Source: Verrucomicrobiota bacterium (GTDB lineage Bacteria; Verrucomicrobiota; Kiritimatiellia; UBA8416; JABMPJ01). Taken from it: a stretch of DNA of 64,000 nt. This document shows positions 3,455-49,761 of the stretch, one piece after another. Location: the NCBI GenBank assembly GCA_018648805.1, contig JABGQM010000013.1:20067-84066 (forward strand), given 5' to 3'. A program made the translations under genes and the position numbers. How positions within the stretch are numbered: position 1 is the stretch's first letter; each line of letters starts with the position of its first letter. A model generated the notes under the pieces. The model was not told the DNA's origin and did not search any database. It worked only from the letters and a program-made list of their open reading frames with translations.

Positions 3455-3526
3455 GGCCTCGCGCTCGGCGAGCGCGGGCTACATCAGACCCCTTCTCTGT
3501 AGCCCGCTCTCGCCGAGAGCGAGGCC
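3455..3526. repeat. REP-like palindromic element copy 1 (intergenic, GH4 / PDZ-protein)
   Basis: ggcctcgcgctcggcgagcgcgggctac - 17 nt - gtagcccgctctcgccgagagcgaggcc. The arms are near-perfect reverse complements. Confidence 0.85.
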
Positions 3527-3620
3527 GGACGGCAAGCATCGCCCTGCACGTCCCTCTTCTGAATTCGGCACTTGGGTATTTCAGATTTCCTTGGGTGTTT
3601 GGGTGATTGGCATCCATCCT

Positions 3621-6600
3621 CTACCGCTTCAGCACGAACCAGGGGCTGTTCCAGGTGCGGGGATGCTTGTAGTGCTGGCGCTCGTGGTAGAAGGTGAAGC
3701 CGCCGGTTTCGATGAAGAGATACGCCTCGCCATCGATCGTCCTGGTCTTCATCTTCAGGGCTCCCGCCTCCCGGCCCGAAATCTGCATCAGCGTGTCACC
3801 GGACCAGTACCGCTCAGAGCTATCGGTAAAGCCATTCTCCTTCAACGTGATGCTGCGGTAGCGCGGCAGCGCGGGGTCGACCTCCGCGCCCGGCTTGAAG
3901 TCGTCGATCTTCGCTACCTTCCCGATCGGCTTCCAGCTGCCGAGCACACTCTCGTTGGCAACGAACGTGCCATCGAAGCGGAAGAGTCCCTCCTCTGTGC
4001 TGAGCTCGCCCTCATCGGAATCCTGATCCTGCTGCCACTCGCTCGACTGCAGGGAAATGAACTTCAGCCCATCCCACGCCAGCTCATCACTGACCGGCGG
4101 ATTCTTCATCTCCTCCAGCCAAACATTGAGAAAGCCATGAATATTCCCGGTTCGATGATGCTTGTTCAAATGGCAGATGGCAGAGAGCGTCACGTCCTGC
4201 CCCTGGAAGGATGCCATCATGCTCTTGGAGATCAACGCCCCTCGTGCGCGGCCGCCTTGCCCTCGTCTCGGAGCAGCTCTGCCACTGGCTATCTGCTTGC
4301 CGTTTATAGAGACTGTCGGGCCATTTCCAAGACCAACGTGCGAACGCCCCCCAAAGAGGATCCGATAGCTATACCCCTCCCTCATCGGCGGGAACGTGAA
4401 TGTCCCGCGGATCATGAGGACCTCCTTCTCCCAGAGCGTATTGACCTGATCTCCACATCGGCAGACTGGATTATTGCAGCCGATGAACCTGTTAGCGTCT
4501 CCCTCGCCTTGCGCCCGGCCATCAACCTGTCCGAATGGTGCAAGCCCCTTCTTCCAGCCAGCCGACACTGGATCGAACTCCGACGAATTCCACCTATCCA
4601 TGCCCTTGGGCATCGTCATCTTGCGTGAGCGATTACCGCGCGGCACCCACTCCAGCTTCTCGGGTGGATCGAAACTGTAGTAATGCCACTTCATTGCACT
4701 TCGATCCGGCCCAAAGTTCTGCCACTCGTAATCGGTAACACCCGCCTTGCGGTAGAGCGACGAGAGATCGGTCAGACGACAGTGGGCACTGCCCCCCTTG
4801 GTCAACTCACTGCGGAGCGTGCCGAGATTACGAGAAACAAACTCAGGCACCAACTGCTCAAGCACGATCGGTTTGAGTGCCGCCTTCACATCGGGTGAAA
4901 AGCTGGCGTAGTCGGCCCAGAGATACTTCTGCTTATAGGGAAGGATCTCTTCCGGGTGCCGGGCCTTGGCCACCTGATAGAGGGCGCTGAAACCACCCGG
5001 TGCGCTCACGAGTTGGTAGGCAATAGTCCTAAGCGAAACAGGGACGACATACTTCTTCATGTCCCCCTTCAGCTGATCCGCAGCGGCATCACCGGCGGGC
5101 GGCTGCAAATCGGCAGGGAAATCAGTGTAGGACTTGCTGAGCATGACAACCGCAGCTGCCTGCACCTTGGGGCTGGCGGTCGCGAGGCGCTTGGTGAGGC
5201 CACCGATCGGACCGGTCGCAGGACAGTTGACGTTGTTGACCACCATGTCACCAATCTTCGGCAGGATTCTGGCGTAGGTGGCATCATCCACCGCCAGGGG
5301 TGCGAGGGCCTGCAGCGCCGCATGCTGCAGCCACCACTCCTCATGACCAAGGAAGTAGAGCAGGCGATCCAAGTGCGGTGCCGTCTTCTCCTTGGGAAGC
5401 ACACTCATCACCCGCAGCGCATTTTCCACGCACCACCATGACGCTTCGGGATCATTGACCATGGCGATCACCAGGCCCACCATCTCGTCGGTCAGCCTCT
5501 CGGCCGGCAACACATGCGTGCCCTTATGTACCGAGTGAATCACCGAGAGCGCGGCCCGTCGTACCCGGGCGTCCTTGTGTTTGAGCATGGCGACGATCTT
5601 CTCATCCTGCTCATTACGCTTCACATAGCCCGCCCCAACCTCTCGGCGCATCTCATGGTCCGGGTGTAGGCAGTACTGCAGCCCAAGTGCTTTCGTATCC
5701 TCTGTGGCCCGGAAGAGCCGTTCAACACCATTGATAGGACCACCCTCGATACTGTCGTCGAATGCTGGAATCCTGCCGTCGGCGTCGACCGCCGGCGTGA
5801 TCTCGCAGAAATCATCATCCGCCGCCGTACCCCAGGGGCGCTCCGGAAGGGCGTAAGGCTTGGACCACTTGCCGCGCGGCGCGCCCGACAAGCGCAGCGT
5901 CTTGCGGGGGATCGTGTACTGCAGCGCCATCATCTGCCCCCAGGTGGAAGGGGTGTCGTAGCGGCTGGTACCATTGAGGATGCCAAAGGAACCATTGAAA
6001 CGACGGCTCATCTCGAGATGCCAGAGGCGGCCATCCATGAAGGCGCGGTATTTGGCGGGTTCTTTCTCGTAGAGGAAGCCCATCGCAGGGCCACGCCACA
6101 CCTCACCAATGCCGCCGCCGGTGTGTCCGGTGAGCATGTAGTTGGTGCCGTAGAAGCCGCGCAGGGCGCTGACATCCCGCGCCCTGGCATAGACCGACTG
6201 CTCACCTCTGGGGGTGAGTGCCGCGGCCGCCGCCATGGTAAAGGCCAGCGCACCGGTCTTGCCGTTGTCGATGAAGTAGGTCTCGGGAAAGCCGTCGCCA
6301 TAGGGCACGCTGCCCTTGCCGGCAAAGCGATAGAACTGCCTGAGCGACTCCAGCATGATGGACTCGTTCACCTCGACGCCGCACTCCTTGGCCAGCATCA
6401 GAAAGGTAGGCCCGTGAATACCGGCCGCATTCATGTGTCCGCCAACCATGTAACCAAAGACCAAGCCGCCCCGACCGCTCCAGGCGCCGTTGAACATCGT
6501 CCCCTCCACGTGCCTGACCAGTTTCTGGATTACAGGGAGAATGCTCTTGTCGCCCGTGCGTAGGTAATACTCGGCCAGGGGAATGGCGGCCGAGCCGAAG

Positions 6601-7280
6601 ACCCACGGTTTGAGGAGGATCTTCTCTTCATGCTTGTACTGTTCGACCACCCGCTTGATCCAGCCACGCACATGTTCCAGATCGCTCTCGTCGCCAGTGG
6701 AGAGAAGGAACAGCATGCCGAACCCATTCAGGGACTTCCATCCCTGCGTATCGAGATCGTAGCCACCCTCGGTCTTCACCCAGTGGGCCATGTTGCGGAC
6801 GATCTTGTCCGACTTCTTGCAGTTGAGCGGCCATGTCTTGCTGTAGGCGCCGAGTACAGGTAGCTGCACAACCACCTCTTCCGCCTCCTCGGCCGCTTTG
6901 ATCATCAGCTTGATCTTACCGTCCGTCGCCTCGGCCGCCGCAATGATCCTGGCCAACTGGATGCGCGGATCAATGTCCTTGAGCACCTGACCGTTGATCG
7001 ACTCGATCCTTTGGCCGGTCACGAGCTTGCCGGTCGCTTCTGCAGGGGAGCCTTCCTCGATCTTACCCACGTACATCTGATACGGCGGCAGGCGCAATTC
7101 GAGGCTCATTCCCACGGGACCAAAGCGGTCGATGCTTTGGCTGGCCGACGTCTCATTCGGATGCCAGAAATTGAACAGGTTGGGCTGCTTATAGAAGGAC
7201 TCCGCCATCGCATGGCTGCCCACCCCGACCCACAACGCTGCCATCATCCCTATCATCCGCATCATCAGTTGCCGCTTCAT
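3621..7280 (-). CDS. Large secreted PDZ-domain protein with alpha/alpha-toroid-like central region, HEAT-like repeats and Cys-rich C-terminal region (paralog 1 of 3)
   Basis: ORF 3621..7310; the probable start is the internal Met MKRQLMMRMIGMMAALWVGVGSHAMA (signal peptide). PDZ-like block GKIEEGSPAEATGKLVTGQRIESINGQVL. Blocks shared with 12695..15121 and 49813..51573: AYSKTWPLNCKKSDKIV, EYYLRTGDKS, TGHTGGGIGEVWR, SFGI, TPRKTLRLSGAPR. Confidence 0.6.
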   Translation of the reverse strand: MKRQLMMRMIGMMAALWVGVGSHAMAESFYKQPNLFNFWHPNETSASQSIDRFGPVGMSLELRLPPYQMYVGKIEEGSPAEATGKLVTGQRIESINGQVLKDIDPRIQLARIIAAAEATDGKIKLMIKAAEEAEEVVVQLPVLGAYSKTWPLNCKKSDKIVRNMAHWVKTEGGYDLDTQGWKSLNGFGMLFLLSTGDESDLEHVRGWIKRVVEQYKHEEKILLKPWVFGSAAIPLAEYYLRTGDKSILPVIQKLVRHVEGTMFNGAWSGRGGLVFGYMVGGHMNAAGIHGPTFLMLAKECGVEVNESIMLESLRQFYRFAGKGSVPYGDGFPETYFIDNGKTGALAFTMAAAAALTPRGEQSVYARARDVSALRGFYGTNYMLTGHTGGGIGEVWRGPAMGFLYEKEPAKYRAFMDGRLWHLEMSRRFNGSFGILNGTSRYDTPSTWGQMMALQYTIPRKTLRLSGAPRGKWSKPYALPERPWGTAADDDFCEITPAVDADGRIPAFDDSIEGGPINGVERLFRATEDTKALGLQYCLHPDHEMRREVGAGYVKRNEQDEKIVAMLKHKDARVRRAALSVIHSVHKGTHVLPAERLTDEMVGLVIAMVNDPEASWWCVENALRVMSVLPKEKTAPHLDRLLYFLGHEEWWLQHAALQALAPLAVDDATYARILPKIGDMVVNNVNCPATGPIGGLTKRLATASPKVQAAAVVMLSKSYTDFPADLQPPAGDAAADQLKGDMKKYVVPVSLRTIAYQLVSAPGGFSALYQVAKARHPEEILPYKQKYLWADYASFSPDVKAALKPIVLEQLVPEFVSRNLGTLRSELTKGGSAHCRLTDLSSLYRKAGVTDYEWQNFGPDRSAMKWHYYSFDPPEKLEWVPRGNRSRKMTMPKGMDRWNSSEFDPVSAGWKKGLAPFGQVDGRAQGEGDANRFIGCNNPVCRCGDQVNTLWEKEVLMIRGTFTFPPMREGYSYRILFGGRSHVGLGNGPTVSINGKQIASGRAAPRRGQGGRARGALISKSMMASFQGQDVTLSAICHLNKHHRTGNIHGFLNVWLEEMKNPPVSDELAWDGLKFISLQSSEWQQDQDSDEGELSTEEGLFRFDGTFVANESVLGSWKPIGKVAKIDDFKPGAEVDPALPRYRSITLKENGFTDSSERYWSGDTLMQISGREAGALKMKTRTIDGEAYLFIETGGFTFYHERQHYKHPRTWNSPWFVLKR

Positions 7281-7443
7281 AAGCTCCAACCTTCCATTAT
7301 CGCCCCACATCTCCGCGCGACCAAATCCTCACACCCCTTTGGGATAATCCCCGACGGCCCATCATTATAGTTACCTCGCATCTAAAAAAAGAAGGGTGAC
7401 ATTGCGACGGTCATCATGTCATTTCGCGACAACTAGTAGACGT

Positions 7444-12694: not shown

Positions 12695-15121
12695 TTACTT
12701 GGCCTTCTTTTGCGCTTCCAGCTGCTTGTGTTCCTCCATCGCAGCTTTGGCCGCCGGGCTGAGTTTAGCGGGGTCCTGCTTCATGTAGATTCGACTGTGA
12801 GGCAGCACGGCATCAGGGAACCGCTTCCGTGCAGGGGCGAATAGCTTGTTTAGCCCGTCCGGGAACTGGGCTGCATTCTGAAGAATGGTGTTCAGCATCG
12901 TTTCCTCCGCGCGCCACATACTGATCTTGTCCGGGCCGTGGATTTCGGCCGCCCGCGGGAAGTCTGTGTAGGACGTGGCCAGTACGTCCAGAGCGAGCTT
13001 CCGCACCTCTGGCGTCGCGCTCTTCAGGCCACCGAAGATCTTTCCAACGGGAGACGAGCGAGGGACGTTGGTGTTCCTGGCCATGATCTTGCCCACGGCG
13101 GGCAGGATTCTGCGGCAAAATCGCTCGTCGCCGGCCACCTTGGCCAGGGGCAGCATTGCGGCCGCCGAAAGCCACCACTCTTCGTGGTCCAGCCAGTAGA
13201 GCAACCGATCCACCTGCGGTGCGATCTGTTCCGCGCTCAGCAGGCTCAACCCTCTAAGCGCGTCGTGCACGACCCACAGAGATTCATCCGCATCGTTGAT
13301 GATGGAATAGAGCTGTTTGACCATGTCGTCCGTGATCCGATTGGCCGGCATGGGGCGTCGCTTGAAGGTACAGTAGATCGCCATCGTTCCCGTGTGCCGC
13401 ACACGAGGGTCCTTGGATGTGAGCAGCTTGACGACCAGATGATCACGCTTGTGCTTCCAGATGAAGCTTGCCGCACCCCGCCGCATCCCGTGATCCGCGT
13501 GATGTGCATATTTGAGCAGGACGTCGTCGCTCACGTCCGGGGCGCTCATGATCCCCCAGACAGGCTGAGACGCGTCCGTTACGAACACTTCGCGGTCAAC
13601 ATCCTGCACGGTGCCGCCATCCTGCATAGCCGGCACATTCGAGCAGAAGGCATCGTCGGCGGCATTCCCCCAAGCACGTTCCGGCAGTTTGTATGGCTTC
13701 AGAAACTTGCTCCGCGGTGCGCCGGTCAACTGCAGCGTCTTGCGCGGCGCCGTGTACGACATGCCCATCGTGATGCCCCATGATTCGGGTTTATCGTATC
13801 GCCCCCCACCGCCCACGATACCAAAGGAGCCGTCGTGGCGTCTGGAAAGCTCATAGAACCACTGCCGCTTGTCCATGAACTCGCGGTGCTTCTTCGGCTT
13901 CTTGTCCTGCATCAGGCCCATGGAATAGCTCCGCCAGATTTCGCCCACGCCACCACCGGTATGCCCGATCAGCATCCACGACGTGGAGTAGAATCCTTTG
14001 ACTGCCGAGTTGTCGCGTGCCCGGGCGTAGATCGAGTTCTCGCCATCGGGTGTCAGCCGGGCGGCCGCAGCCATGGTGAATGCAAGACCGCCGGTCTTGC
14101 CGTTGTCGACGAAGCTCTGCTCAGGGATGCCATCGCCATACGGCACGTTGCCCCGGCAGGCAAAGCGGAAGAAATGCTTAAACGACTTCTGCAATGTGGC
14201 TTCATCGACCTCAGCACCGCAGGCCTGGGCCATCAGCAGAAACGTCACCACGTGTACGCCACAGGCATTGATATGTCCGCCGCCCATGTAGGGGAATGCC
14301 ATATGCGCATCCGGGCCGCGTCGGCCCTGGTACGTACCGTGTGCCCAGCCGTCGTTATACATGTCCCACCGGGCGTGGTCTGCGATCATGCTGATGAGGG
14401 GCAGCACCGATTTGTCACCGGTGCGCAGGTAGTACTCGCACAGCGGAACGCCCGCATAGCCAACGGTCCAGTTCTGGATCGGGGCCACGTCGGCCGGCGT
14501 CTTGTACGTCTCGACCAGTTTTCCGGCCCAGCGGCGAGCGACCGCGAGATCCTTCTCCTCGCCTGTTGAAAGCATGAACAGCATGGCCGGGCCCGTAAGA
14601 TGGCTCAGCGGGAAGTCTTCGCGCGTTCTGAGATAGTCGGCCAGATCAGTGACGATCTTGTCGGACTTCTTGCAGTTCAGCGGCCAGGTCTTGCTGTAGG
14701 CACCGATCGCCGGAATCTTCACCGCGACCTCCCGGGCATCAGCGTCTGCCTTATCGCGAATGATGAACTTCAGCACGCCGTCCTTCGCTTCAGCCTTCGT
14801 GATCATGTTGCCGAGCTGAATGCGGGGGTCGATATCCTGCAGCTTCTCGCCGTTGATCGTGTCGATGATCTGCCCCGTCTTCAGGCCACTCTTCTCGGCA
14901 GGTGATCCGGGCTCCACGCTCTTAATCTTCATGCCGAACGCCGGCAGCGTCAGCTCAATGCTCAGTCCTGCCGGGCCAAACCGGTTGACGAGCTGCCCCC
15001 CTCGCGTCTCACTGGGACGGAACGCAAAGTAAATGGCGTCCGGTGCATAGTATGCGGCCTCCACGGCTGCGGCCGTGATAAGCACCATGATGATCGCAAC
15101 AATCCACTTCGTCTGTTTCAT
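12695..15121 (-). CDS. Secreted PDZ-domain / alpha-alpha-toroid-like protein (paralog 2 of 3)
   Basis: Start at MKQTKWIVAIIMVLITAAAVEA, preceded by an AGGAGA RBS. PDZ-like block KIKSVEPGSPAEKSGLKTGQIIDTINGEKL. Blocks shared with 3621..7280: AYSKTWPLNCKKSDKIV, EYYLRTGDKS, GHTGGGVGEIWR, TAPRKTLQLTGAPR. Confidence 0.6.
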   Translation of the reverse strand: MKQTKWIVAIIMVLITAAAVEAAYYAPDAIYFAFRPSETRGGQLVNRFGPAGLSIELTLPAFGMKIKSVEPGSPAEKSGLKTGQIIDTINGEKLQDIDPRIQLGNMITKAEAKDGVLKFIIRDKADADAREVAVKIPAIGAYSKTWPLNCKKSDKIVTDLADYLRTREDFPLSHLTGPAMLFMLSTGEEKDLAVARRWAGKLVETYKTPADVAPIQNWTVGYAGVPLCEYYLRTGDKSVLPLISMIADHARWDMYNDGWAHGTYQGRRGPDAHMAFPYMGGGHINACGVHVVTFLLMAQACGAEVDEATLQKSFKHFFRFACRGNVPYGDGIPEQSFVDNGKTGGLAFTMAAAARLTPDGENSIYARARDNSAVKGFYSTSWMLIGHTGGGVGEIWRSYSMGLMQDKKPKKHREFMDKRQWFYELSRRHDGSFGIVGGGGRYDKPESWGITMGMSYTAPRKTLQLTGAPRSKFLKPYKLPERAWGNAADDAFCSNVPAMQDGGTVQDVDREVFVTDASQPVWGIMSAPDVSDDVLLKYAHHADHGMRRGAASFIWKHKRDHLVVKLLTSKDPRVRHTGTMAIYCTFKRRPMPANRITDDMVKQLYSIINDADESLWVVHDALRGLSLLSAEQIAPQVDRLLYWLDHEEWWLSAAAMLPLAKVAGDERFCRRILPAVGKIMARNTNVPRSSPVGKIFGGLKSATPEVRKLALDVLATSYTDFPRAAEIHGPDKISMWRAEETMLNTILQNAAQFPDGLNKLFAPARKRFPDAVLPHSRIYMKQDPAKLSPAAKAAMEEHKQLEAQKKAK

Positions 15122-15289
15122 ATCGGATACGTCTCCTGTTTCGCCATTCTGTTCCTGGTGCCCGGCACCGTTCAAACTATTTCTCGTTCGCAAGCCGCGG
15201 CCATCACCGCGCCCCCACCTTCAGCATGCACAATATTCAGAAGTAAGTATACTCGATCAACACGCAGGCAATACACATCACTACCTTTT

Positions 15290-39110: not shown

Positions 39111-39142
39111 GATCGATTGCTGCCGATTGCTATCGATCTGCT
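39111..39142. repeat. 10-bp tandem repeat CGATTGCTRY x2 (+CGATCTGCT) in the MoxR-DUF58 spacer
   Basis: gatcgattgctgccgattgctatcgatctgct. The unit is shared with 25258..25303. Confidence 0.7.
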
Positions 39143-39151: not shown

Positions 39152-40171
<1,020 letters not shown>

Positions 40172-40228
40172 TCTCTCTCCCTCACGCTTCATGCTATTGC
40201 TGATCACCTATTCGAGTGCCCTGCCTGA

Positions 40229-40301
40229 GGCCTCGCTTTCGGCGAAAGCGGGCTACAAAGAAGGCGCGTTCCTGTAGCCCGCTCTCGCCGAGAGCGAGGC
40301 C
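40229..40301. repeat. REP-like element copy directly upstream of moxR
   Basis: ggcctcgctttcggcgaaagcgggctacaaagaaggcgcgttcctgtagcccgctctcgccgagagcgaggcc. Confidence 0.85.
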
Positions 40302-40459: not shown

Positions 40460-42121
40460 TCACCCTTTCACGCCGCTCATGACTACACCCTGGATGAAGT
40501 ATCGCTGGGCCAGGAAGAAGATGACCAGCACCGGGGCCACCATAATCAGAGACCCGGCCATAAGCAGGGAGAAGCTGCCGCCACTCTGGAGCTGGAAGCT
40601 GAAGAGGCCCAGCGCCAGATTGTAGAGGCGCTGATCGTTGACGTAGATCAGCGGTCCCATGAAGTTGTTCCACGAGCCCATGAACGTGAAGATGGCCACA
40701 GCGGCCAGGGCGGGTCGGACGTTGGGAAGGATGACATTCCAGTAGGTCCTTAGGAAACCGCACCCGTCGATCTTGGCTGCATCCGTGAGGTCCTTGGGAA
40801 TGCCCTTCATCGCCTGCACCAGCAGGAAGACGAAAAACGCATTCCCGAACATGGACGGCACCCACAGCGGAAAGAGGGTGTTGTACCACCCGAGGGACTT
40901 AAAGATGATGAATTGTGGAATCATTGTCACTTGCGCCGGGATCATGAGCGTCGACAGCAGCAGGACGAAGCAGAGCTTTCTGCCCGGCCACTCCATCCGC
41001 GCAAAGGCGTAGGCCACGATCGACGAACTGAGAATCGTCAAGGTGATGTTGGCACAGGCCAGGAATATGCTGACCCAGAGGTAACGGTCGAACGGGACCT
41101 GTTTGAGGACACGCCGGAAGTTCGCGCTGAGCTTGCCCCTCCAGGCGCGCACCGGCCCGCTGCGCACCAGGGTGGCTTCGATCTGCAGTTCATTGGGGGC
41201 GAGGTTATCGACATCGGCCACGGCATGTACAAGCGTCCAGTTCCTCTGCATCGGCTTGCTGTCGTCGGCACTGGGCTCCTGGAAGATCACCTCGGACCAG
41301 CGTGACCCGACGAGCACGAAATCCTCTTCCGCTTCAAAGCGCTTGCCCTTCATGCTGACCGCCACGCGCACCCGGTGGCAGCTCCGGTCGGCCCGGATCG
41401 GGATAGAGATCTGCTTGATCTCTCTCGGGTCGAAGGGCAGCGTGAAGCGGGTGGTCAGCCTGATGGTACCCGAAGGGCCGAACCGGTAGTGCAGATCGCG
41501 TACGGTCTGATCCCCTCCCCCGAAGGGCTCAGCCAGCGTCAGCCCCCCCTCGGTCACGACCCACCGGGACCCGGGCGCGACCTCCACGAAGTCGCGTTTG
41601 CGGAGTATCGGCGAACTGATAGCGGCACGCCGGTAGACCGCATCAAAGACCTTCGCCAGGCGGCCGGGCACGGCAGCGGCTGTCCCGATCTCGGCCATGA
41701 TCCGGTCATCGGCCTCACTCCAGAGCGTGTCGGGTAGCACGCCCAGCAGGTTGGCCCAGAGACCATTCACGAGCGAGGGTATCGCGCCGGCTTGATCAAC
41801 CGGCAGCTCCGCGGCGATATCACTCTGTTCGACCTGCGCACGCAGTGCAGAGCGGATAGCGGGCTGCAGCCGGGCCCAGCCGGGCCCCGCGAGCGCCTCG
41901 GGGCAGGCCATCTCGCCGAAATAGCTACGGTCGACGTAGGGCGATGCGGCGCGCGGCTCGGGGGCCGACGGCAGGATGCGCAGGCGTTCCGGCACCAGCT
42001 CTTCGTCTTCCTTCATGGCCGTGAGCAGCAGCCAGAGGAACGGGATCAGGAAGACAGCACTGCCGATAAACAGGCAGGCATGCAGGGCGAAGCGGGAGCG
42101 TTTTCTGAAGTGCAAGCCCAT
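40460..42121 (-). CDS. Carbohydrate ABC transporter permease (MalG-like) with a ~330-aa periplasmic insertion after TM1
   Basis: EAA-loop region DAAKIDGCGFLRTYWNVILPNVRPAL and a typical C-terminal TM pattern. TM1 FALHACLFIGSAVFLIPFLWLLL, then a long non-membrane segment. Its ATG overlaps the upstream stop (ATGA). Confidence 0.7.
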   Translation of the reverse strand: MGLHFRKRSRFALHACLFIGSAVFLIPFLWLLLTAMKEDEELVPERLRILPSAPEPRAASPYVDRSYFGEMACPEALAGPGWARLQPAIRSALRAQVEQSDIAAELPVDQAGAIPSLVNGLWANLLGVLPDTLWSEADDRIMAEIGTAAAVPGRLAKVFDAVYRRAAISSPILRKRDFVEVAPGSRWVVTEGGLTLAEPFGGGDQTVRDLHYRFGPSGTIRLTTRFTLPFDPREIKQISIPIRADRSCHRVRVAVSMKGKRFEAEEDFVLVGSRWSEVIFQEPSADDSKPMQRNWTLVHAVADVDNLAPNELQIEATLVRSGPVRAWRGKLSANFRRVLKQVPFDRYLWVSIFLACANITLTILSSSIVAYAFARMEWPGRKLCFVLLLSTLMIPAQVTMIPQFIIFKSLGWYNTLFPLWVPSMFGNAFFVFLLVQAMKGIPKDLTDAAKIDGCGFLRTYWNVILPNVRPALAAVAIFTFMGSWNNFMGPLIYVNDQRLYNLALGLFSFQLQSGGSFSLLMAGSLIMVAPVLVIFFLAQRYFIQGVVMSGVKG

Positions 42122-44565
42122 CACGCGTCTCCTTGATAGTGAACCCACCGCTTCGAGTAGCGCATCTGCAGCAGCGTCAAGACGAGCACCAGCACGAACA
42201 GAACCCAGGCCAGTGCGGACGCATACCCCATCCTGAAGAAACGGAACGCCTCATTGAAGATCTTGTAGGCGTAGAACAGGGTGCTGTTGACCGGTCCACC
42301 GTCGGTCATGACATAGGCCTGGTCAAAGATCTGGAAGGTGGCGATGAACCCCATGATCATGTTGAAGAAGATGTAGGGACTCAGCATCGGCAGCGTGATG
42401 GCAGAGAAGCGCCGCACGGCGCCCGCGCCGTCGATGCTGGCCGCCTCATACAGCGATTCGGGGATGGATTTGAGCCCGCCGAGCCAGATGACCAGTCCGC
42501 CGCCAGCGCTCCACAGTCCCATAATAATGAGGGCCGGCTTGGCCCACATCTCGTCCAGCAGCCATTTGGGTCCCACGATGCCAAACAGACTCAACGCCGT
42601 ATTCAAGAGTCCGCGATTCGGCTCAAACATCCAGATCCAGAGGACCGAGGAGGCCACCACCGGCATCACGGCCGGCATATAGAAGATCGTGCGGTAGACC
42701 GACATCCCTTTGAGTTCGCGGTGCAGCAGAAGCGCCAGACCGAGACCCACACCGAGTGATAGTGGCAGGCCGAGCAGCATGAACACCGTGTTGCCGAGGG
42801 CTTTGTAGAACAGCGTGTCGTTAAAAAGCATCTCCCGGTAGTTATCGAGCCCCACGACAACCGCCGGCGTAAACACATCGTAGGAGCAGAAGCTGATGAT
42901 CAGCGAGAACAGGATCGGGCCGCCACCGAAGATGATGAAACCGAAGATCCACGGTGAGGCACATAGAGCACCGTCCCACAATTCGCGGCGGAAGATCCCT
43001 TTGACGTGGCGGCCGCCAACCTTCCATATCACCATCCCGGCCACGGCGATCAGCGCGATATACAAACCGATGACAATCGGCCAGGGCGCCTCAGCACCTT
43101 GCGGCGGCTGTAGCACGCCATCCAAGTCACGCTGAACGATGGCCGTCCCCTTCTTCAGAGCCTCCTCCGGTATCAGCTTGTGGAAGAGCGCCGCCTCCAT
43201 GGCGTTGACATGTTCCTCCCAGAGGCGCTGGCCCACCGGGGTAACCGGCCGGAAGCGGCTGTGGGACAGCAGGGCGAGTATCTGGCTGTAGGCCTCTCGC
43301 AGTTCCGCGGGAATCTCGTGGGCGTTCGCGACATATTTCTCATACAACAGCCGCGAGGTCGCCCTGTTGGGGCTGTACCGGGGGATGTACATGCGTCCCA
43401 TGCTGCGCGCCTGCTGGGCACGGCGCGCGTGCAACATCATTTCCGCCTTCCGGGAAACCAGTGACTGGATCAGCATCCAGGAGGCCTCTGGGTTGCGCGC
43501 GGTCTTGGGTACGGAGAACGCATAGCCGCCGCTCCAGCTGATGGGCTCAGCCCCCTCATCGCTACGGCGCTGGGGAATCGGTGCCGGGGCCACGAGGAAT
43601 TCCATGTCAGGCTTGTAAGCAGCGATGGAGTCGAAACACCAGTTCCCATCGATCTTCATGGCGACCTGATCGTTGAGGAACGGGTCCAGCGGGCCGGTCT
43701 GCAACGACTGCTGGAACGCGTATACCTCCTGTACGCCGCCCAGCGCGTCATAGACGTCGACCATGTACTCAAGCGCCTCCACGACCTCAGGGGAGTCCAT
43801 CGTGCAGGTTTGGCCATCCTCGCTCATGAAGCGGGCACCGTTCATCCAGCCATACAGGTACAGCCAGGCATTGCCGAAGTTGGGCGCGAAGCCAAGCGTC
43901 TTGATGCCGCCATCAGGATGCTTGCGAGTGAGCTTGATCGCGTAGGCCTTCAGTTCGGCCCAGTTCTGCGGTGGCCGCACGTCGCCGGCCCTGGCCTTCC
44001 CGGCCTTCACCTGCGGCTCGTCGGCCTTCCAAACATAGCCCGCGCGACGCAGCAGGGCCTTGTTGCAGTAGAGCGCACGGTTGTCGATGCTGTGCGGGAT
44101 ACCGTAGCAGCGTCCGCGGTAGACCGTTTCGTCCCAGGCGGCGCTGAAGTAGTCCTCGCGCTGAATACCGTCGGGGCTGTCCTGGTCCCGTGCGAGAAAG
44201 GCATCCAGCGAGAGAAAGGTGCCCCGTGCCGCCCATTCGGTGATGGCGAAACGGTCGTAGAAAATGACATCCGGCGGCACGCCACCCGCGGTACCCAGGA
44301 GGAAGCGCGTCGGATCGCCGGTCAGGTTACGCACCGACGCCGTACCACTGATCACGCGATACGCCGGGTTCTCGCGCTCGAAGTGTTCCACCACCGGACG
44401 GTAGTCTTCGATCTGCTCAGGGCTGGCAAACCAGATCGAGATCTCGGTGCGGGTATCCCGTTCCCACTTCACATGCAGCGTCAGGAATCCCGCGACAAAC
44501 AGGCCTACAATCAGACAGACAATGGCATTCGATCGCAGCCATGTGATAGGAGCATGCATAGACAT
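42121..44565 (-). CDS. Fusion protein: membrane-anchored extracellular solute-binding protein (SBP family 1) fused to an ABC permease (MalF-like)
   Basis: An N-terminal TM anchor, then ~450 aa of sugar-SBP-like sequence (WFASPEQIEDYRPVVEHFERENPAYRV...), then six TM helices with the EAA region EAASIDGAGAVRRFSAITLP. One 814-aa ORF. Confidence 0.65.
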   Translation of the reverse strand: MSMHAPITWLRSNAIVCLIVGLFVAGFLTLHVKWERDTRTEISIWFASPEQIEDYRPVVEHFERENPAYRVISGTASVRNLTGDPTRFLLGTAGGVPPDVIFYDRFAITEWAARGTFLSLDAFLARDQDSPDGIQREDYFSAAWDETVYRGRCYGIPHSIDNRALYCNKALLRRAGYVWKADEPQVKAGKARAGDVRPPQNWAELKAYAIKLTRKHPDGGIKTLGFAPNFGNAWLYLYGWMNGARFMSEDGQTCTMDSPEVVEALEYMVDVYDALGGVQEVYAFQQSLQTGPLDPFLNDQVAMKIDGNWCFDSIAAYKPDMEFLVAPAPIPQRRSDEGAEPISWSGGYAFSVPKTARNPEASWMLIQSLVSRKAEMMLHARRAQQARSMGRMYIPRYSPNRATSRLLYEKYVANAHEIPAELREAYSQILALLSHSRFRPVTPVGQRLWEEHVNAMEAALFHKLIPEEALKKGTAIVQRDLDGVLQPPQGAEAPWPIVIGLYIALIAVAGMVIWKVGGRHVKGIFRRELWDGALCASPWIFGFIIFGGGPILFSLIISFCSYDVFTPAVVVGLDNYREMLFNDTLFYKALGNTVFMLLGLPLSLGVGLGLALLLHRELKGMSVYRTIFYMPAVMPVVASSVLWIWMFEPNRGLLNTALSLFGIVGPKWLLDEMWAKPALIIMGLWSAGGGLVIWLGGLKSIPESLYEAASIDGAGAVRRFSAITLPMLSPYIFFNMIMGFIATFQIFDQAYVMTDGGPVNSTLFYAYKIFNEAFRFFRMGYASALAWVLFVLVLVLTLLQMRYSKRWVHYQGDA

Positions 44566-44590: not shown

Positions 44591-44663
44591 GGCCTCGCGC
44601 TCGGCGAGCGCGGGCTACAGGGACGCGGATTCTCTGTAGCCCGCTCTCGCCGAGAGCGAGGCC
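44591..44663. repeat. REP-like element copy (intergenic, esterase / transporter)
   Basis: ggcctcgcgctcggcgagcgcgggctacagggacgcggattctctgtagcccgctctcgccgagagcgaggcc. Confidence 0.85.
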
Positions 44664-44707: not shown

Positions 44708-46186
44708 CTACGGCGCGAAGAACGACTCCATCTTCGAGGTCGATTCAGGACCGGCGTCCCCAAAGTATTTATCGGCCAGGTCCACACGGCCCAGACTCTC
44801 CAGGTAGACGCCCGCCAGGGCTCGCGCGTCACGGTTGTCCGGCTTGAGCTGTGTGACGAGGACGGCCAGATTGGCGAAGTCGACCGGCTTGAGATCCGTG
44901 GACCTGATGGCGACGCTCTTCCCTGAGCCCGCGCTAAACGTCAAGCTGTTGGCGTCCTCGACCGACACCAGGGAAACCTTCGCCCGCGTCAGGCTCAGCG
45001 GGACCGCCTTGCCGGTGCGCAGCAAGCCGGCATCACTCACCTTCACCAGGGCCTTCATCATCGTGTGGTTAAGCAATTGGATCTTCATGGGCGACACGCC
45101 GCGTGCTTTGCGCAGAGGTGGCGCGGCCGTGCGGGATGTCGCGCTCTTGCGTCCCCCGCCCCCGCGGCTCTCCTCCAGCATCTCGGCCATGGCCCGCCCC
45201 ATGCCTTCACCAACATTCATGTAGGTTTCCGAGTTTCCGCCGTAGTGGCCGTTGGCACTACCGGGCTTGGAGACAGGGTTGGAATAGAAGGTGGCCACGT
45301 TGCCCTTGAACTCGGGGTGCTTTCCGCTCTTGCCGTCAACCGCGAGCTGGGCATCCGTAATGGTGCCACCAGCGCCGCCGCTCCCCTTCTGGGCCTGTCC
45401 CATGGTGGCACAGACGAAGAGGGCGTCCGGGGCATTGAAGTCCTTGCGCAGGTCCTTGATGAAATGGACGAGGTTCTCTTCATACTTGTCCGCATTGCCA
45501 CCTCGGCCCAGATCCTTGGCGCCCTGCCAGAAGCAGAATCCCGCGACTTCGAATGTCTTGGCGCCCGGGTAGTAGGTGCTCAGGTCCTCAAGGACCTCCT
45601 TGGCGGCTCTTGTGTCCCCGTCATACTGCACACCGGCATACCAGCCTCCCGGTTTCGGTGTTCGGGTGGGATCGCCCTTGTCCCCTTCATAACCGTCCGC
45701 GCTGGGTGGCAGAAGATCGTAGCCCAAACTGCGGTTGCCGATGCAGCTCTTCAGGATCAAGACGGGTTCGTCCAGCACCCGGCCGACATAGTGTCCGATG
45801 CCGACCTCCGGGCCGATGTGCTTGCCACTGATCGTCATCCACTCATTCTTGTAAGTCTTCCAGGGGCCGGAGCCGGAACACATGACCCGCACGTTGCGCA
45901 CGTCTTGGCGCACGGTCCAGTTGCCGGCATCATCCACAAGGTAGGGGTACAGCTGCTTATTCTTCACGGCGTTATCAAGTGATCCTTCGCCGCCGGCGAC
46001 CTTGCCGAAGCCCAGCATGTTTGACTGTCCGAGCAGGATAAACACCTGGACCGGCTTCCTCATGTCGGCCGGCTCGCCGTCCGGGTCAGGAAGCTCTGCG
46101 GGAAGTCCCACCGCCATACCGCTTAGCAGGTGACTCGCGATCACCGCAACGAGAAGACTCCATACGATTCTGGTCTGCGCTCTCAT
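44708..46186 (-). CDS. Sialate O-acetylesterase-like (SASA / SGNH-type) carbohydrate esterase with a C-terminal extension
   Basis: VFILLGQSNMLG (GQSN catalytic block). Start MRAQTRIVWSLLVAVIA, preceded by an AGGAGGGG RBS. The track ORF extends upstream into a REP element. Confidence 0.65.
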   Translation of the reverse strand: MRAQTRIVWSLLVAVIASHLLSGMAVGLPAELPDPDGEPADMRKPVQVFILLGQSNMLGFGKVAGGEGSLDNAVKNKQLYPYLVDDAGNWTVRQDVRNVRVMCSGSGPWKTYKNEWMTISGKHIGPEVGIGHYVGRVLDEPVLILKSCIGNRSLGYDLLPPSADGYEGDKGDPTRTPKPGGWYAGVQYDGDTRAAKEVLEDLSTYYPGAKTFEVAGFCFWQGAKDLGRGGNADKYEENLVHFIKDLRKDFNAPDALFVCATMGQAQKGSGGAGGTITDAQLAVDGKSGKHPEFKGNVATFYSNPVSKPGSANGHYGGNSETYMNVGEGMGRAMAEMLEESRGGGGRKSATSRTAAPPLRKARGVSPMKIQLLNHTMMKALVKVSDAGLLRTGKAVPLSLTRAKVSLVSVEDANSLTFSAGSGKSVAIRSTDLKPVDFANLAVLVTQLKPDNRDARALAGVYLESLGRVDLADKYFGDAGPESTSKMESFFAP

Positions 46187-46232
46187 CTTGCCCCTCCTGT
46201 TCCTGGCTCCTTGATTCTGCATACACCGCCCC

Positions 46233-46342
46233 GGCCTCGCGCTCCCCGCCAAGGCGGGGCAAGCGGCGAGTTCACCCCGCTCCGCGGGGCGCGGGCTACA
46301 AAGAATCCGCCTCCTGTAGCCCGCTCGCGCCGCGAGCGAGGC
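46233..46342. repeat. Long-variant REP-like element with nested palindrome CCCCGCCAAGGCGGGG
   Basis: ggcctcgcgctccccgccaaggcggggcaagcggcgagttcaccccgctccgcggggcgcgggctac - spacer - gtagcccgctcgcgccgcgagcgaggc. Confidence 0.85.
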
Positions 46343-46595
46343 AGGCTGAACCCGATCACTTCACCCGCAGGTGTACCAATCCCAGCGGCCATGGACGCCT
46401 ATCGGTCAGCGTTCTGGATCTCCCCATAATAGCGCCGACAATGACAGACCAGCCAGTGATAGATCGCGACATTGCGCCTGCAATTTTGCGACAGGGCAAG
46501 CCGTCAGACGCGGACGGAACAGTGTGTGCAGAGGGCTATCGATCTGCACGGACACGCTCAACATCTACCCGTCAACCGATCTCCGCTAACTCCAT

Positions 46596-49500
46596 TCACC
46601 CCCGACACAGGGCCGGGGGGATCTTAATACCGAATCCGGCAAGCGTGTAGTCGCCCTGCCCGTTGCCCCTGCGCTGACACGGATGCAGCGCGACGCCCAA
46701 GTTTCTGCGATGCGGTCCATATAGATTCTGGGCCGTATTGTGGAGGGTCAGCACGATCGTGTTCATGCCCTCAGCCAGGTGATCCGCCAGGCGGAAGCGG
46801 TACGGCGCCATGTAGCGACAGCCGACCTCGCGCCCGTTGACGGCGAAGGTCACGACCCCATCGACCTCCCCGCAATCGAGCCAGGCCGCGCCTTTGGCCC
46901 CATCGATCGTCGTTTCATAGCGCATCCCACCCCAATAGAACGGCCATCCCGATTCCACCAGATCGCCAAAGGCATAGCGCGGCGCGGTCAGCTGGGGGCG
47001 CATGCCGTCGTCGGTGGGCACCAAATCGACCCCGAAATCTCCCATCAGGTAGAACGGTTCAAACAGAACATCCCCGGCCAGACGCTGCATCGTGATCCGG
47101 TTCTCACCCGCCTGAATCAGCCCGACCACATCAACCACCACCAAGTCCTGGCTCGACGGATGCCGACCGGCTGCCGCCGGCAGGGGGATGCCATTGATGC
47201 GCATAGAGGAAAGGGTCACCGCCTCGCCGACGATGGCGGTGATCCTGTCAGGTCCGGAAACGTCAATGCGGACCACAAGCGTCTCCGGCTCACCCGCAAG
47301 TTGCTCGGTATGCGTCGCCTGCTCGCCATCCGGTCCTTCGCACCAATCGATCAGCATCAGGTTCGGCTGCTCGGCAGTGATGGTCCAGCGGGGGACGGCA
47401 AGGGCGGATTCCGTATGTCGGTGAGGGCTTCGCTCTCGGCGAGAGCGGGCCACATGGGGACCACTGTCGCCGGACGTGGGCTTTCCCGGCACATGCGCAC
47501 TGAACAGCGTCTCTTGCAGCGGCTTCACCACCACACCTTCCGGTAACTCCGGCAGTAGATGAACCGCATGGAATGGCGGCAATACCACCCCGACCGGGCT
47601 TGCCCCGAGCCCGCAACGCGCCACCCCCACCGGGCTTGCGTCCTGCCCGCACGCTCCCGCCCCCACCGGGCTTGCCCCGGTGGAGCGAAAGATCCCCACA
47701 TCCCCCGCCGGATCATACACATGCCACTCCCCACCCCACCCCACACGTTGCGGGCGGTCGGACATGTTGCAGATATAATGTTCCTTGCGTCCGCCAACCA
47801 CGCGCGTGTGACTGATAACGGGCGCGCCCGCCTCTTCTAGCTGCAGCTCAATCGTCGGTGTGAGGCCACACTCGCGCAGCGCCATGGGGGTGGCGATGGC
47901 CTCCGGAGAGAGCCTCGCTCCCGGCGAGAGCGGGCTACATAGAGACAACTCGCCGGCAGCACGAACATCCCCGAATACCGCCTGCGGCGGGACCACGCCA
48001 TCCACCCGACAGTCCCGCGCGGGATTGAGCGCGATGATCCTTCCGCCCGCAGCCTGGAACGCCTCGAGCAGCGCCACCGTGGTTTCAAGCAGGTTGCAGG
48101 TCTCGGGAATGATCACCGTGGTATAGCGCATGGCCCCCATCTGCAGTCCAGCGTCCTTCACGGCGCCGTGTTTGGCCAGCAGCCACTCATCGCCATACTC
48201 GAATCCTACCTGCAATTTAAGCAGCTCATGGGAGACGGCGGCCAACGACTCCTCCAACGCCCGCGGATCCGGCAGCGTCTCCTCGGTGCCGGTCTCGAAG
48301 GGATGGCCGATGCTGCAGCTGCGCCCATCCATCGCAGTCCAGCAGGCGGACATCGGGTGGATCACAAGGGCGCTCGCGTCATAGGTTCCGCGCGTGAGCA
48401 GCTGCGTACTGCGGGCGATGGCATCGTGAAACCGCTTGTACTGAGGCCAATAGGGTTGCTGGAAAAAGTAGCTCGGCGGGCAGTCCCGCTTGGCCACCCC
48501 GCCCGTGGCGTAGCTGAAGGCGTGATGGACCATCAGGTTGACCCCCAGGGCGAGCTCGTAGTTCAGGAAGGCCGACTGCCCCCACATCGACGCACCCCAC
48601 CCCAGAAAGGTGAGCACCTCGCAACTGCAGGCACCGTCCTTCAACTGGTTGGCCACCGACGAGGCCTGCTTGAAAAGGATCACCGGACAGTGCCCCTGCC
48701 CGTTGCGCAGTTGGTCGAGGTAACACCCGCTGGAAACAGAACAAAGGAAGTCGTCGATGCCGGGGATATGCTCGTGCTCGTAGAAAGCCATCGCCGAGCC
48801 GAAGCGCTGGACCGACTTTGTGATGTCTCCCTCATCCCCACTCAGATGACCGGTAAAGCGGACCCCATGCTCGTCGCACCAGCGGTACATGGGATCGACG
48901 AACTCATTGAGAAAGAGATCGAGCACCAGCCCCCGGTAATCGAGCCGGACCTCTTCACGGCCGGGCAGCGCCTCGATAAGCGCCGGGAGATGATCCAGCA
49001 GACTGTAGCCCAGTCGTGCTTCGAAGATTTGTGGCAGCCGTTCGGTCCACGGCAGACTGGCTTCACGATCCAGGTAACTGTTCAGATCATCCGTGTAGAG
49101 ATGGGTGATGGGGTTGCCGAAGAACTCCTTGAGCTCGCGAAAGTAGACCTCGTGGGTCATCGCGATAAAGCGATCCGCCGTTTCCCGCTTGAGCGTGTCG
49201 ACGTAGCGTGGCAGGCGCGTCATCCAGAACGCGAGCACCTCCTGGTCCGGCGCAACATGCTCCACACTGAGTCGCTCAAATCCGACGGCATCATACACCG
49301 CCACCAGGTCCTGTATCCTGTCGAGTTCCGCGACCCGCTGATAGCCATAGCAGAGCAGTTTCTGCTGGTAGAACGGATCGTCCTTCTGCAGGCGATGCCC
49401 GACCGTGCCGCTGGGGAACCCCTCTTCGTCGTAGAGCCAGATCTCCAGTCCCAGCCGGCGGGCCTCCTCGCAGGTATGGCGCATCAGCGCAAGCCAGCGC

Positions 49501-49712
49501 GTCGACATGTAGTCGGTCTGGTTGCCCTCCCGCGCGTGCACGGTCATGCCTCTCAGACCCCCTGCCGCCGCCAGTTCAAGCTGACGGGAGATCTCCTCCT
49601 CCCGCTGATCCCCGTTCCAGAACCAGAACGGAACGGCGCCATTCGCGCGTGTATTGAATTCAATCATCGGTAGCGGTGCCGCTCTCCTCTTGTCCTCCGC
49701 GATCGTCTTCAT
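46596..49712 (-). CDS. Putative glycoside hydrolase (uncharacterised family; N-terminal TIM-barrel-like region with FWFWNG block, C-terminal beta-sandwich) containing REP-derived in-frame segments
   Basis: Start MKTIAEDKRRAAPLPMIEFNTRANGAVPFWFWNGDQ, preceded by an AAGGA RBS. A continuous 1038-aa frame reads through two REP half-sites and a 30-bp tandem repeat. Family assignment is tentative. Confidence 0.45.
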   Translation of the reverse strand: MKTIAEDKRRAAPLPMIEFNTRANGAVPFWFWNGDQREEEISRQLELAAAGGLRGMTVHAREGNQTDYMSTRWLALMRHTCEEARRLGLEIWLYDEEGFPSGTVGHRLQKDDPFYQQKLLCYGYQRVAELDRIQDLVAVYDAVGFERLSVEHVAPDQEVLAFWMTRLPRYVDTLKRETADRFIAMTHEVYFRELKEFFGNPITHLYTDDLNSYLDREASLPWTERLPQIFEARLGYSLLDHLPALIEALPGREEVRLDYRGLVLDLFLNEFVDPMYRWCDEHGVRFTGHLSGDEGDITKSVQRFGSAMAFYEHEHIPGIDDFLCSVSSGCYLDQLRNGQGHCPVILFKQASSVANQLKDGACSCEVLTFLGWGASMWGQSAFLNYELALGVNLMVHHAFSYATGGVAKRDCPPSYFFQQPYWPQYKRFHDAIARSTQLLTRGTYDASALVIHPMSACWTAMDGRSCSIGHPFETGTEETLPDPRALEESLAAVSHELLKLQVGFEYGDEWLLAKHGAVKDAGLQMGAMRYTTVIIPETCNLLETTVALLEAFQAAGGRIIALNPARDCRVDGVVPPQAVFGDVRAAGELSLCSPLSPGARLSPEAIATPMALRECGLTPTIELQLEEAGAPVISHTRVVGGRKEHYICNMSDRPQRVGWGGEWHVYDPAGDVGIFRSTGASPVGAGACGQDASPVGVARCGLGASPVGVVLPPFHAVHLLPELPEGVVVKPLQETLFSAHVPGKPTSGDSGPHVARSRRERSPHRHTESALAVPRWTITAEQPNLMLIDWCEGPDGEQATHTEQLAGEPETLVVRIDVSGPDRITAIVGEAVTLSSMRINGIPLPAAAGRHPSSQDLVVVDVVGLIQAGENRITMQRLAGDVLFEPFYLMGDFGVDLVPTDDGMRPQLTAPRYAFGDLVESGWPFYWGGMRYETTIDGAKGAAWLDCGEVDGVVTFAVNGREVGCRYMAPYRFRLADHLAEGMNTIVLTLHNTAQNLYGPHRRNLGVALHPCQRRGNGQGDYTLAGFGIKIPPALCRG
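47424..47456. repeat. REP half-site (left-arm-like) inside ORF 46596..49712
   Basis: gggcttcgctctcggcgagagcgggccacatg, read in-frame as ...HVARSRRERSPHR... Confidence 0.7.
47588..47680. repeat. ~30-bp tandem repeat x3 (core CCCCACCGGGCTTGC) inside ORF 46596..49712
   Basis: ccccgaccgggcttgcccc... / cccccaccgggcttgcgtcc... / cccccaccgggcttgcccc, encoding ASPVGAGACGQDASPVGVARCGLGASPVGV. Confidence 0.7.
47911..47940. repeat. REP half-site inside ORF 46596..49712
   Basis: agcctcgctcccggcgagagcgggctacat, read in-frame as ...SLCSPLSPGARLS... Confidence 0.7.
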
Positions 49713-49733
49713 GTCCTTCGCGCTCGTCCTTGT

Positions 49734-49761
49734 GTAGCCCGCTCTCGCCGAGAGCGAGGCC
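49734..49761. repeat. Truncated REP element (right arm) immediately upstream of the 46596..49712 start and RBS
   Basis: gtagcccgctctcgccgagagcgaggcc, preceded by a degenerate left arm ccttcgcgctcg. It ends about 20 nt before the ATG. Confidence 0.8.

Follow-up and report, generated by a model that had tools for sequence, protein, structure and literature searches.

Repetitive extragenic palindromes (REPs) that open with GTAG, among them intragenic copies read in frame, have been described in Opitutus terrae, Rhodopirellula baltica and Planctomyces, and the highest intragenic count was recorded in a verrucomicrobium (PMC3733652). By the published criterion, each tnpAREP gene, which encodes a REP-associated tyrosine transposase (RAYT), is flanked by a REP family of its own (PMC6006769), and in the systems tested, bulged and perfectly palindromic REPs belong with different, co-evolved TnpAREP groups (PMC8266576). 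The Escherichia coli enzyme requires GTAG and a stem mismatch for binding and cleavage, and cuts between C and T (PMC3333891). Here we describe a stretch of 64,000 nucleotides (the window; G+C content 60.4%) from a Verrucomicrobiota bacterium of the class Kiritimatiellia (contig JABGQM010000013.1, positions 20,067 to 84,066). It holds a dispersed GTAG-footed palindrome, family A, together with one RAYT-like gene that contains a different hairpin, family B. We consider it likely that family A consists of GTAG-type REPs arranged in the inverted pairs known as REPINs (REP doublets forming hairpins) or BIMEs (bacterial interspersed mosaic elements), that the RAYT-like gene is part of a separate family B system, and that the enzyme for family A is encoded elsewhere.

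Family A units and their hairpin

An earlier note, made from the letters of this DNA, had reported a dispersed palindromic family of at least ten copies. Scanning with the two arm motifs at up to three mismatches returned 11 and 14 matches, against 0.00 expected from 100 dinucleotide-preserving shuffles, and a looser scan (up to six mismatches) returned 15 units of 27 nt each at ten loci between 3455 and 49761 (Table 1), which bears out that report. Its particulars stood as well: the full copies it listed at 3455, 18910, 23995, 40229 and 44591 are all head-to-head doublets (72 to 74 nt long, with spacers of 16 to 18 nt), its long variant at 22204 and 46233 is a 68-nt long-loop unit present in two composite loci, and its half-sites are the single units at 47427, 47912 and 49734. 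Copies run in both orientations, with gaps of 0.5 to 16 kb and no regular spacing, and the window scan found none in 1-3454 or 49762-64000. The foot is GTAG in 14 of the 15 units and GTGG in the remaining one. Family A accounts for 17 of the 26 GT[AG][GC]-footed hairpins found in the window (shuffles give 7 to 10) and is the only dispersed family of such hairpins in it.

The consensus of the unit is GTAG-CCCGC-NNNN-GCC-NNNN-GCG-A-GGC, with a G1-T-A-G4 foot, a 10-bp stem in which positions 4-13 pair with 17-27, a bulged A24 and a GCC loop. Five stem variants occur in the window (GCTC/GAGC, TCTC/GAGA, TTTC/GAAA, TCGC/GCGA and GCTT/AAGC), each compensated within its unit. The left arm is of the GCTC type and the right arm of the TCTC type in four of the five doublets; because the arms differ in type, the long hairpin of about 73 nt has two mismatched positions, while the hairpins of the units are perfect. 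Spacers end in ..YCT directly 5' of GTAG. The long variant keeps the basal stem unchanged, its apical CTC-GCC-GAG being swapped for about 45 nt that make two small hairpins. Its two copies (22204-22271 and 46233-46300) are 94% complementary to one another, with CCCCGCCAAGGCGGGG at 46245-46260 answered by the near reverse complement CCCCGCCTTGACGGGG (one mismatch) at 22244-22259, and the difference between them at one pair (T10-A20 versus G10-C20) is compensated.

Covariation was assessed over 12 distinct units, taken from the window and from further PVC (Planctomycetes-Verrucomicrobia-Chlamydiae) genomes. In this set, 99.2% of the cells pair and eight of the ten pairs change on both sides, a result reached by none of 500 shuffles, with slid controls paired at 25 to 49%; the pattern suggests that the unit hairpin is under selection. 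Folded as single-stranded DNA (ssDNA), the doublets reach -35 to -40 kcal/mol (z -6.6 to -8.5) and single units about -9 to -10 kcal/mol. The REP-like nature that the earlier note had proposed is apparent in the anatomy: the unit is an imperfect palindrome in the 20-40 nt range kept by compensatory change, its conserved 5' GT[AG]G foot is retained in related PVC units, and inverted pairs with a short spacer are repeated as a unit, as in REPINs and BIMEs. An Rfam search gave no match for family A, and a search for tRNA and tmRNA returned nothing. No T-run follows the hairpins in the sequence read at the loci, and an intrinsic terminator was rejected on that ground.

Table 1. Coordinates of the family A loci, the RAYT-like gene and the family B doublet in the window (aa, amino acids; ORF, open reading frame)
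Feature	Position	Strand	Composition or product	Context
Head-to-head doublet	3455..3526		GCTC-type arm on -, 16-nt spacer, TCTC-type arm on +	Spacer from stop of ORF 3621..7310(-) to ATG 3381 of ORF 2008..3381(-)
Head-to-head doublet	18910..18983		Encodes SESLALGESGLQGSGLQSSPRSPSARPA	In frame within 959-aa ORF 17274..20153(-), variable linker
Composite tail-to-tail doublet	22204..22319		Long-loop unit 22204-22271(+), ~20-nt spacer, GCTT-type unit 22293-22319(-)	Between stop of ORF 22350..25346 and ATG 22203 of next gene
Head-to-head doublet	23995..24068			In frame within paralogous 998-aa ORF 22350..25346(-)
Head-to-head doublet	40229..40301		TTTC-type and TCTC-type arms	Spacer of ORF 40460..42148(-) and ORF 39152..40207(-)
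Head-to-head doublet	44591..44663			3' of stop of ORF 44708..46252(-); ATG 44565 is 26 nt downstream
Composite head-to-head doublet	46233..46343		Long-loop unit 46233-46300(-), spacer, TCGC-type unit 46316-46342(+)	~47 nt upstream of likely start ATG 46186, SASA-esterase gene
Single unit, GTGG foot	47427..47453	-	Encodes HVARSRRERSP	In frame, GH106-like ORF 46596..49841(-)
Single unit	47912..47938	-	Encodes CSPLSPGARLSP	In frame, GH106-like ORF 46596..49841(-)
Single unit	49734..49761	+		Spacer from stop of ORF 49813..51639(-) to likely ATG 49712, GH106-like gene
RAYT-like gene	15290..16357	-	355 aa from ATG 16357	ORF extends to 16369 (TTG)
Family B head-to-head doublet	16056..16103		Around palindrome CGTACG	Within RAYT ORF, core of ~60-aa insert

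Family A in host proteins and in other PVC genomes

Genes in the window lie almost all on the minus strand. Five loci are clearly intergenic (3455, 40229, 44591, 46233 and 49734) and occupy short spacers between co-directional minus-strand genes, 22 to 74 nt upstream of likely start codons with Shine-Dalgarno-like sequences. Four others (18910, 23995, 47427 and 47912) lie in frame inside long ORFs. The earlier note had placed the copies at gene boundaries, which is right for the former, or for six loci if 22204 is counted, and wrong for the latter. Locus 22204 is ambiguous between a 5' untranslated region and an in-frame N-terminus: ATG 22203 abuts the element's CTAC end and begins a signal-peptide-like sequence, and ATG 22350, the start picked by gene callers, comes with an AAGGAG box and shares bases with the stop codon upstream (TAATG). 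With the latter start, the element is an in-frame N-terminal insert. All five head-to-head doublets share one polarity relative to transcription, on a strand with uniformly negative GC skew; this is compatible with strand-biased, replication-linked insertion, five cases being too few to say more.

The peptides SPLSPRARP and ARSRRERG are translations of family A elements, as the earlier note had recognised. This has some value for annotation: ORF callers read through the elements, giving over-extended N-termini and recurrent SPLSPRARP, ARSRRERG and LALGESGLQ peptides, and four real proteins here carry element peptides in frame. The doublets at 18910 and 23995 lie in paralogs of about 950 aa that are 37% identical overall and near-identical over the element, with the common peptide SESLALGESGLQG(S/G)GLQSSPRSPSARPA at one alignment position. 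Linker position and spacer are identical in the two copies, and the identity runs on for about 10 nt into either flank. The protein family is full-length across PVC bacteria (one NCBI member, 'MAG: hypothetical protein HN919_21050 [Verrucomicrobia bacterium]', is 100% identical to the window ORF), and the peptide lies in a variable linker. In the closest orthologs (74-77% identity) this linker is short, unrelated in sequence and free of the element, effectively an empty site, and an ortholog at 68% has three TCGC-variant units in the same linker (SLARGASGLQ..SSPLAPRVRPA x2). Fusion of two adjacent genes by a stop-free REP was rejected, since members of the family are full-length throughout PVC bacteria and the two flanks share one frame.

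Other repeats involve these proteins. The two TPR-like paralogs are the product of a tandem duplication (17274-25346, 5085-nt spacing), and their PVC-wide family falls below every Pfam gathering cut-off. The GH106-like ORF of 1081 codons, which holds the singles at 47912 and 47427, also contains, between them, three in-frame 36-nt tandem repeats (47585-47679, GASPVG...-type peptide), a third kind of repeat insert in this protein.

Outside the window, a contig pattern scan with the degenerate pattern GTAGCCCGCNNNNGCCNNNNGCGAGGC returned at least 92 matches, mostly chance ones in Streptomyces and other high-GC genomes, and these were filtered by stem complementarity. Among the 92 matches listed, 11 are stem-complementary, where about 0.4 would be expected by chance, and all 11 are from PVC bacteria, their labels being Victivallales, Verrucomicrobia/Verrucomicrobiota, Kiritimatiellae and Planctomycetaceae metagenome-assembled genomes (MAGs). 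The matched loci have no other DNA in common with the window and contain further compensated stems, arranged in both head-to-head and tail-to-tail doublets (doublets in L019, L053, L018 and L038). When four stop-free REPIN translations were concatenated and searched against 5.8 billion proteins, a single weak match came back, and it led to an independent doublet locus from another metagenome (L182). This is a full head-to-head doublet in unrelated flanks, and its spacer is identical to that of 44591 at 13 of 17 positions. A 34-aa REPIN-encoded peptide had no matches among 1.84 billion representative proteins. Given the matches in other PVC MAGs and in L182, family A occurs beyond this stretch, and the dispersal data comprise 15 units at ten loci in 46 kb of the window plus the L182 doublet. 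Moreover, since near-identical doublets stand in unrelated flanks (L182) and in paralogs that are only 37% identical, recent copying is indicated.

Two related arrangements were seen in these genomes. In the Planctomycetaceae MAG CAWDLR01, a family A-like unit with an ACAC/GTGT stem lies tail to tail with a bulge-less unit, GTAGGCGGCACACGCCGTGTGCCGCC (L005 1969-2130, L048 and L054), and the pair sits within a longer conserved element of about 120 nt on three contigs. In a Verrucomicrobiota MAG (L039 628-880), a TCGC-variant unit is part of an 89-nt unit in at least two tandem repeats, which is clustered rather than dispersed.

The RAYT-like gene and its family B hairpins

The earlier note had also pointed to a RAYT-like gene at 15290..16369. 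Indeed, its product has a Pfam Y1_Tnp match (E 3.7e-8) and an N-terminal class 2 Y1 HUH domain of IS200-like fold with intact motifs (HFH 137-139, W183 and, with the catalytic Tyr, Y204-IRM-NP, numbered from TTG 16369), which do not vary among 80 homologs. No other Y1 gene is present in the 64-kb window. The gene probably starts at ATG 16357 and is translationally coupled to the Metallophos gene upstream, the start and stop codons overlapping in ATGA. The best NCBIfam model, NF047646 (REP-associated tyrosine transposase), scores 67.3 bits, or 79.5 without the insert, and so does not reach its cut-off of 80; homologs score 53-58 bits, and the IS200 model gives the window protein 20-27 bits. The HUH domain is split by a hypervariable insert of about 60 aa, and the C-terminal domain of about 145 aa is predicted to adopt a DprA-like Rossmann fold, resembling the ssDNA-binding Rossmann domain of DprA in an AlphaFold model (predicted local distance difference test score, pLDDT, 81). 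Homologs number in the hundreds, are about 300-320 aa long and carry the labels Pontiellaceae, Pontiella, Kiritimatiellia and Lentisphaeria; so far the RAYT-DprA clade is made up mostly of Kiritimatiellota- and Lentisphaeria-labelled sequences. No paper describing a RAYT-DprA-like fusion clade with self-embedded hairpins was found in a literature search.

At the core of the insert stands the family B doublet, with the units GTAC-GGGCAG(gccttgtgt)CTGCCC and GTAC-GGGCGC(gccttgtgt)GCGCCC; the window holds no other copy. In-frame tandem repeats flank it, with a 15-nt period at 16097-16171 (GEERS units) and a period of about 9 nt at ~16010-16055 (PLP/PLS). In assembly L094 (20-249) the RAYT insert is longer by one 15-nt repeat, and L092 has an assembly gap of Ns there (5400-5499). 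A GTA[GC]-footed perfect hairpin of the form GGGC-x4-loop-x4-GCCC lies in the gene, or no more than 100 nt from it, at 30 of 42 homolog loci, and family B-type hairpins number 56 in 47 kb of gene region versus 4 in 473 kb of flanks, an enrichment of about 140-fold. Their positions are typically +130 to +400 and +600 to +770 nt, with some 40-75 nt upstream, and their stems vary between loci and are always compensated. The homolog family consensus contains the hairpin-encoded peptide VGAGLV..A...G.HE..PY. At one homolog locus (L103), GTAC-footed family B units are dispersed. Half-hairpin tandem repeats of 15, 27 or 30 nt occur in homologs L102, L143, L172 and L174.

A REPtron, in which a RAYT gene has units of its own REP family within about 1 kb on its flanks, is not what family A and this gene form. 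The closest family A unit lies 2.5 kb away, and there is none in the 96-nt spacer on the 3' side of the gene or in the 5' neighbour that overlaps it; the hairpins that the window RAYT carries are those of family B, not family A. Homolog loci were inspected with flanks of up to ±10 kb, as the contig allows: family A is absent from 80 metagenome homolog loci (about 590 kb) and from those of the three closest homologs (83 loci in total, about 640 kb), nor are family A peptides found in any of the 120 best homolog proteins, so that across these loci and proteins REP and RAYT do not co-occur. Conversely, a tblastn search for RAYT homologs in the PVC loci that bear family A, only 2-8 kb each, found none. 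Since the gene has its own hairpin doublet and no family A lies around its homologs, a pairing of the two is rather unlikely. Most likely the window RAYT belongs to a separate hairpin system, family B, and the enzyme moving family A is probably encoded elsewhere in the genome.

The genomic context of the RAYT-DprA gene is not conserved. In two of the closest homolog loci, L178 (7220-13995) and L179 (2407-5709), it begins right where a type I restriction hsdR gene ends, with hsdS and hsdM after it in L178, and in L177 it stands alone; PADLOC returned nothing meaningful for the window gene. Two further repeats were seen in the window. ORFs 3621..7310 and 12695..15193 (DUF6288 per source annotation) share stretches of 72-74% identical DNA (repeats D1 and D6), and a 10-nt periodic motif (ATTGCTGCCG-like) forms short runs at 25251-25301, near the 5' end of ORF 22350..25346, and at 39106-39136, between ORFs 38132..39106 and 39152..40207.

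Competing readings and comparison with known systems

The GTAG foot of family A, its bulged A24 and the ..YCT run directly 5' of the foot correspond to the requirements of E. coli TnpAREP (PMC3333891). If family A behaves like the systems already characterised, its elements would be non-autonomous. The unit hairpin, with its foot and stem irregularity, would be bound on ssDNA, such as occurs at the replication fork, by a RAYT/TnpAREP enzyme of the Y1 HUH kind, which would cut nearby C-T dinucleotides and rejoin the strands, the element being excised, copied or reinserted. In this way family A may have spread into two kinds of site: the short gaps separating co-directional genes, where its transcript would fold into a very stable RNA hairpin with a possible effect on operon expression, and permissive linkers of large secreted or glycan-related proteins, where it lies in frame.

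Several points tell against this account. Copy number was seen only in 64 kb and a few short contigs. Those units of the covariation set that come from outside the window had been selected beforehand for complementary bases in the four apical pairs, a filter that touched neither the lower-stem pairs nor any window unit. Because the paralog doublets share their spacer and ~10-nt flanks, gene conversion or recent copying is as likely for them as two insertions. The comparison of related loci for empty sites, which the earlier note had suggested, gave element-free linkers in the 74-77% orthologs and, among the population's independent assemblies (L092-L095, L176, L180 and L181, 99.5-100% identical to the window at covered sites), no polymorphic empty or filled site, the extra repeat in L094 and the gap in L092 being the sole differences; mobility is thus inferred only. 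Finally, no RAYT among the loci examined is flanked by family A, and the mobilising enzyme is therefore hypothetical.

Family A could instead be immobile by now, however it arose, a set of structures retained by the host as mRNA 3'-end protectors, partial terminators or protein-binding sites in operon spacers and kept by selection on that function. The placement of the clearly intergenic copies, all of them in co-directional spacers 22-74 nt upstream of likely starts, suits such a role, as do the stability of the hairpins, the common polarity of the five head-to-head doublets, the lack of insertion polymorphism among assemblies and the published finding that REPs lie mainly between unidirectional and convergent ORFs and probably act as RNA (PMC3733652). 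However, a terminator or stabiliser makes little sense at the four loci in coding sequence, the near-identical doublets in L182 and in the 37%-identical paralogs imply recent copying, and the hairpins have neither a T-run nor an Rfam match; we take this to be a serious but unlikely reading. That the repeats are a product of local segmental duplication or gene conversion within one gene cluster, and not a genome-wide family, would explain 18910 and 23995, which lie in tandem paralogs 5085 nt apart with a shared spacer and short flanks, and would suit the lack of copies in 1-3454 and 49762-64000. It is very improbable for the whole family, because the remaining eight loci have unrelated flanks and different spacers, the element is found elsewhere in unrelated contexts, and a 14-kb gap is not unusual for ten loci in 64 kb. 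The palindromic sequence itself is all that would favour a CRISPR-like or other tandem array, which the earlier note had named as an outcome that would undo its proposal, or a chance GC-rich palindrome; irregular spacing of 0.5-16 kb in both orientations rules out the former and the shuffles, which expect no matches, the latter, and we give the two together a negligible probability.

The earlier note had joined the repeats and the gene into one REP-RAYT system, with 15290..16369 as the cognate enzyme of dispersed family A. The RAYT is indeed the sole Y1 gene here, its catalytic HUH, W and Y---NP residues are invariant in the 80 homologs, and, judging from Trp spacing, W183, E189 and R193 would match W94, E100 and R104, of the five GTAG-contacting residues of E. 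coli TnpAREP (PMC6006769). Moreover, family A has the canonical GTAG foot, where the gene's own hairpins here have GTAC, as well as the irregular stem and neighbouring CT required by E. coli TnpAREP (PMC3333891), and it is present in 15 units, against no second copy of family B in 64 kb. Yet no family A unit flanks the gene, which abuts its neighbours and lies 2.5 kb from the nearest one. The homologs, including the three closest (67-72% identity), are without family A in the surrounding DNA, and their family B hairpins are concentrated about 140-fold in or next to the gene; none of the 120 best homolog proteins contains a family A peptide, and the dispersed units in L103 are GTAC-footed family B. 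Known RAYT groups are, in addition, specific for bulged or perfect REPs (PMC8266576), and of these two types family A is the bulged one and family B the perfect one. A single system is thus unlikely, and that part of the note was not supported. Alternatively, the RAYT-DprA enzyme may act on its own gene, in self-regulation or self-generated surface-loop variability, rather than, or besides, spreading REPs, and may perhaps be recruited for family A in trans. This would fit because the hairpins lie almost exclusively in or beside its own ORF and are flanked by sample-variable in-frame tandem repeats, but we think it improbable. We therefore retain the reading of two systems, with family A as mobile GTAG-type REPs. 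A REP family should not, as a caution, be paired with the nearest RAYT by proximity alone.

The earlier note had called REP systems poorly documented in PVC bacteria, which is only partly true: publications already cover GTAG REPs in this group, intragenic REPs read in frame and REPs lying within RAYT genes (PMC3733652, PMC6006769). What family A adds is one well-defined GTAG family for Kiritimatiellota, Lentisphaerota and Verrucomicrobiota, where few are catalogued, and the RAYT-DprA-like fusion with hairpins in its own ORF could be a useful model for the domestication of Y1 HUH enzymes. The GTAG REPs of PVC bacteria (Opitutus terrae GTAG-17 to -20; Di Nocera et al. 2013, PMC3733652) likewise have a 5' GTAG, sometimes GTGG, and a stem of 6-10 bp. 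Like family A, they form head-to-head and tail-to-tail dimers with short spacers. The published REPs lie mainly between unidirectional ORFs and are in a minority of cases in frame within ORFs, where the dimers encode 20-30 aa. The O. terrae REP peptides (e.g. VGPALAAG) are unlike those of family A, which also differs in its long-loop variant with the two-hairpin apical insert of ~45 nt, and the consensus GTAGCCCGC-N4-GCC-N4-GCGAGGC does not appear in the text of that paper or in those of its supplements that we examined. In REPINs (Bertels & Rainey 2011, PMC3116915) and E. coli BIMEs (Ton-Hoang et al. 2012, PMC3333891), as in family A, the repeated unit is an inverted REP pair with a short spacer that forms one long hairpin. 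Arms of different subtypes recall the E. coli Y/Z BIMEs, and the spacers are partly conserved. In contrast to both, no flanking RAYT (REPtron) was found for family A in the loci described above, and 40% of the window loci are intragenic, much above what is usual.

Rickettsia palindromic elements resemble family A in being palindromic repeats tolerated in frame in surface loops and linkers, with insert-free orthologs. They are longer (about 100-150 bp) and AT-rich, and we know of no RAYT linked to them. RPE-4 and RPE-6 are of CGTC type (PMC3733652). For the window RAYT, the comparison is with TnpAREP subclass 2.4 (Bertels group 4; Quentin et al. 2018, PMC6006769), which shares its class 2 Y---NP motif and, with family B, three G-C pairs at the stem foot and REPs in frame within the tnpAREP gene in a variable peripheral loop. 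The two differ in their motifs (DHFH / WH / YIRMNPW in the window protein, NH[IFV]H / WQ / YIxNNP in subclass 2.4), in length (about 300-320 aa for the homologs versus 194 aa, the difference being the conserved DprA-like C-terminal domain) and in the main insert site, which lies before the HUH strand in the window RAYT and between HUH and Y in subclass 2.4. In the clade of the window RAYT, moreover, hairpins are rare outside the gene and NF047646 scores fall below the cut-off. No DprA-like tail was reported for the published subclasses, and the long-tailed ones are said to lack REPs (PMC6006769). As a REP/REPIN family, then, family A is ordinary, and the RAYT-DprA fusion clade with its self-embedded hairpins is the more unusual item.

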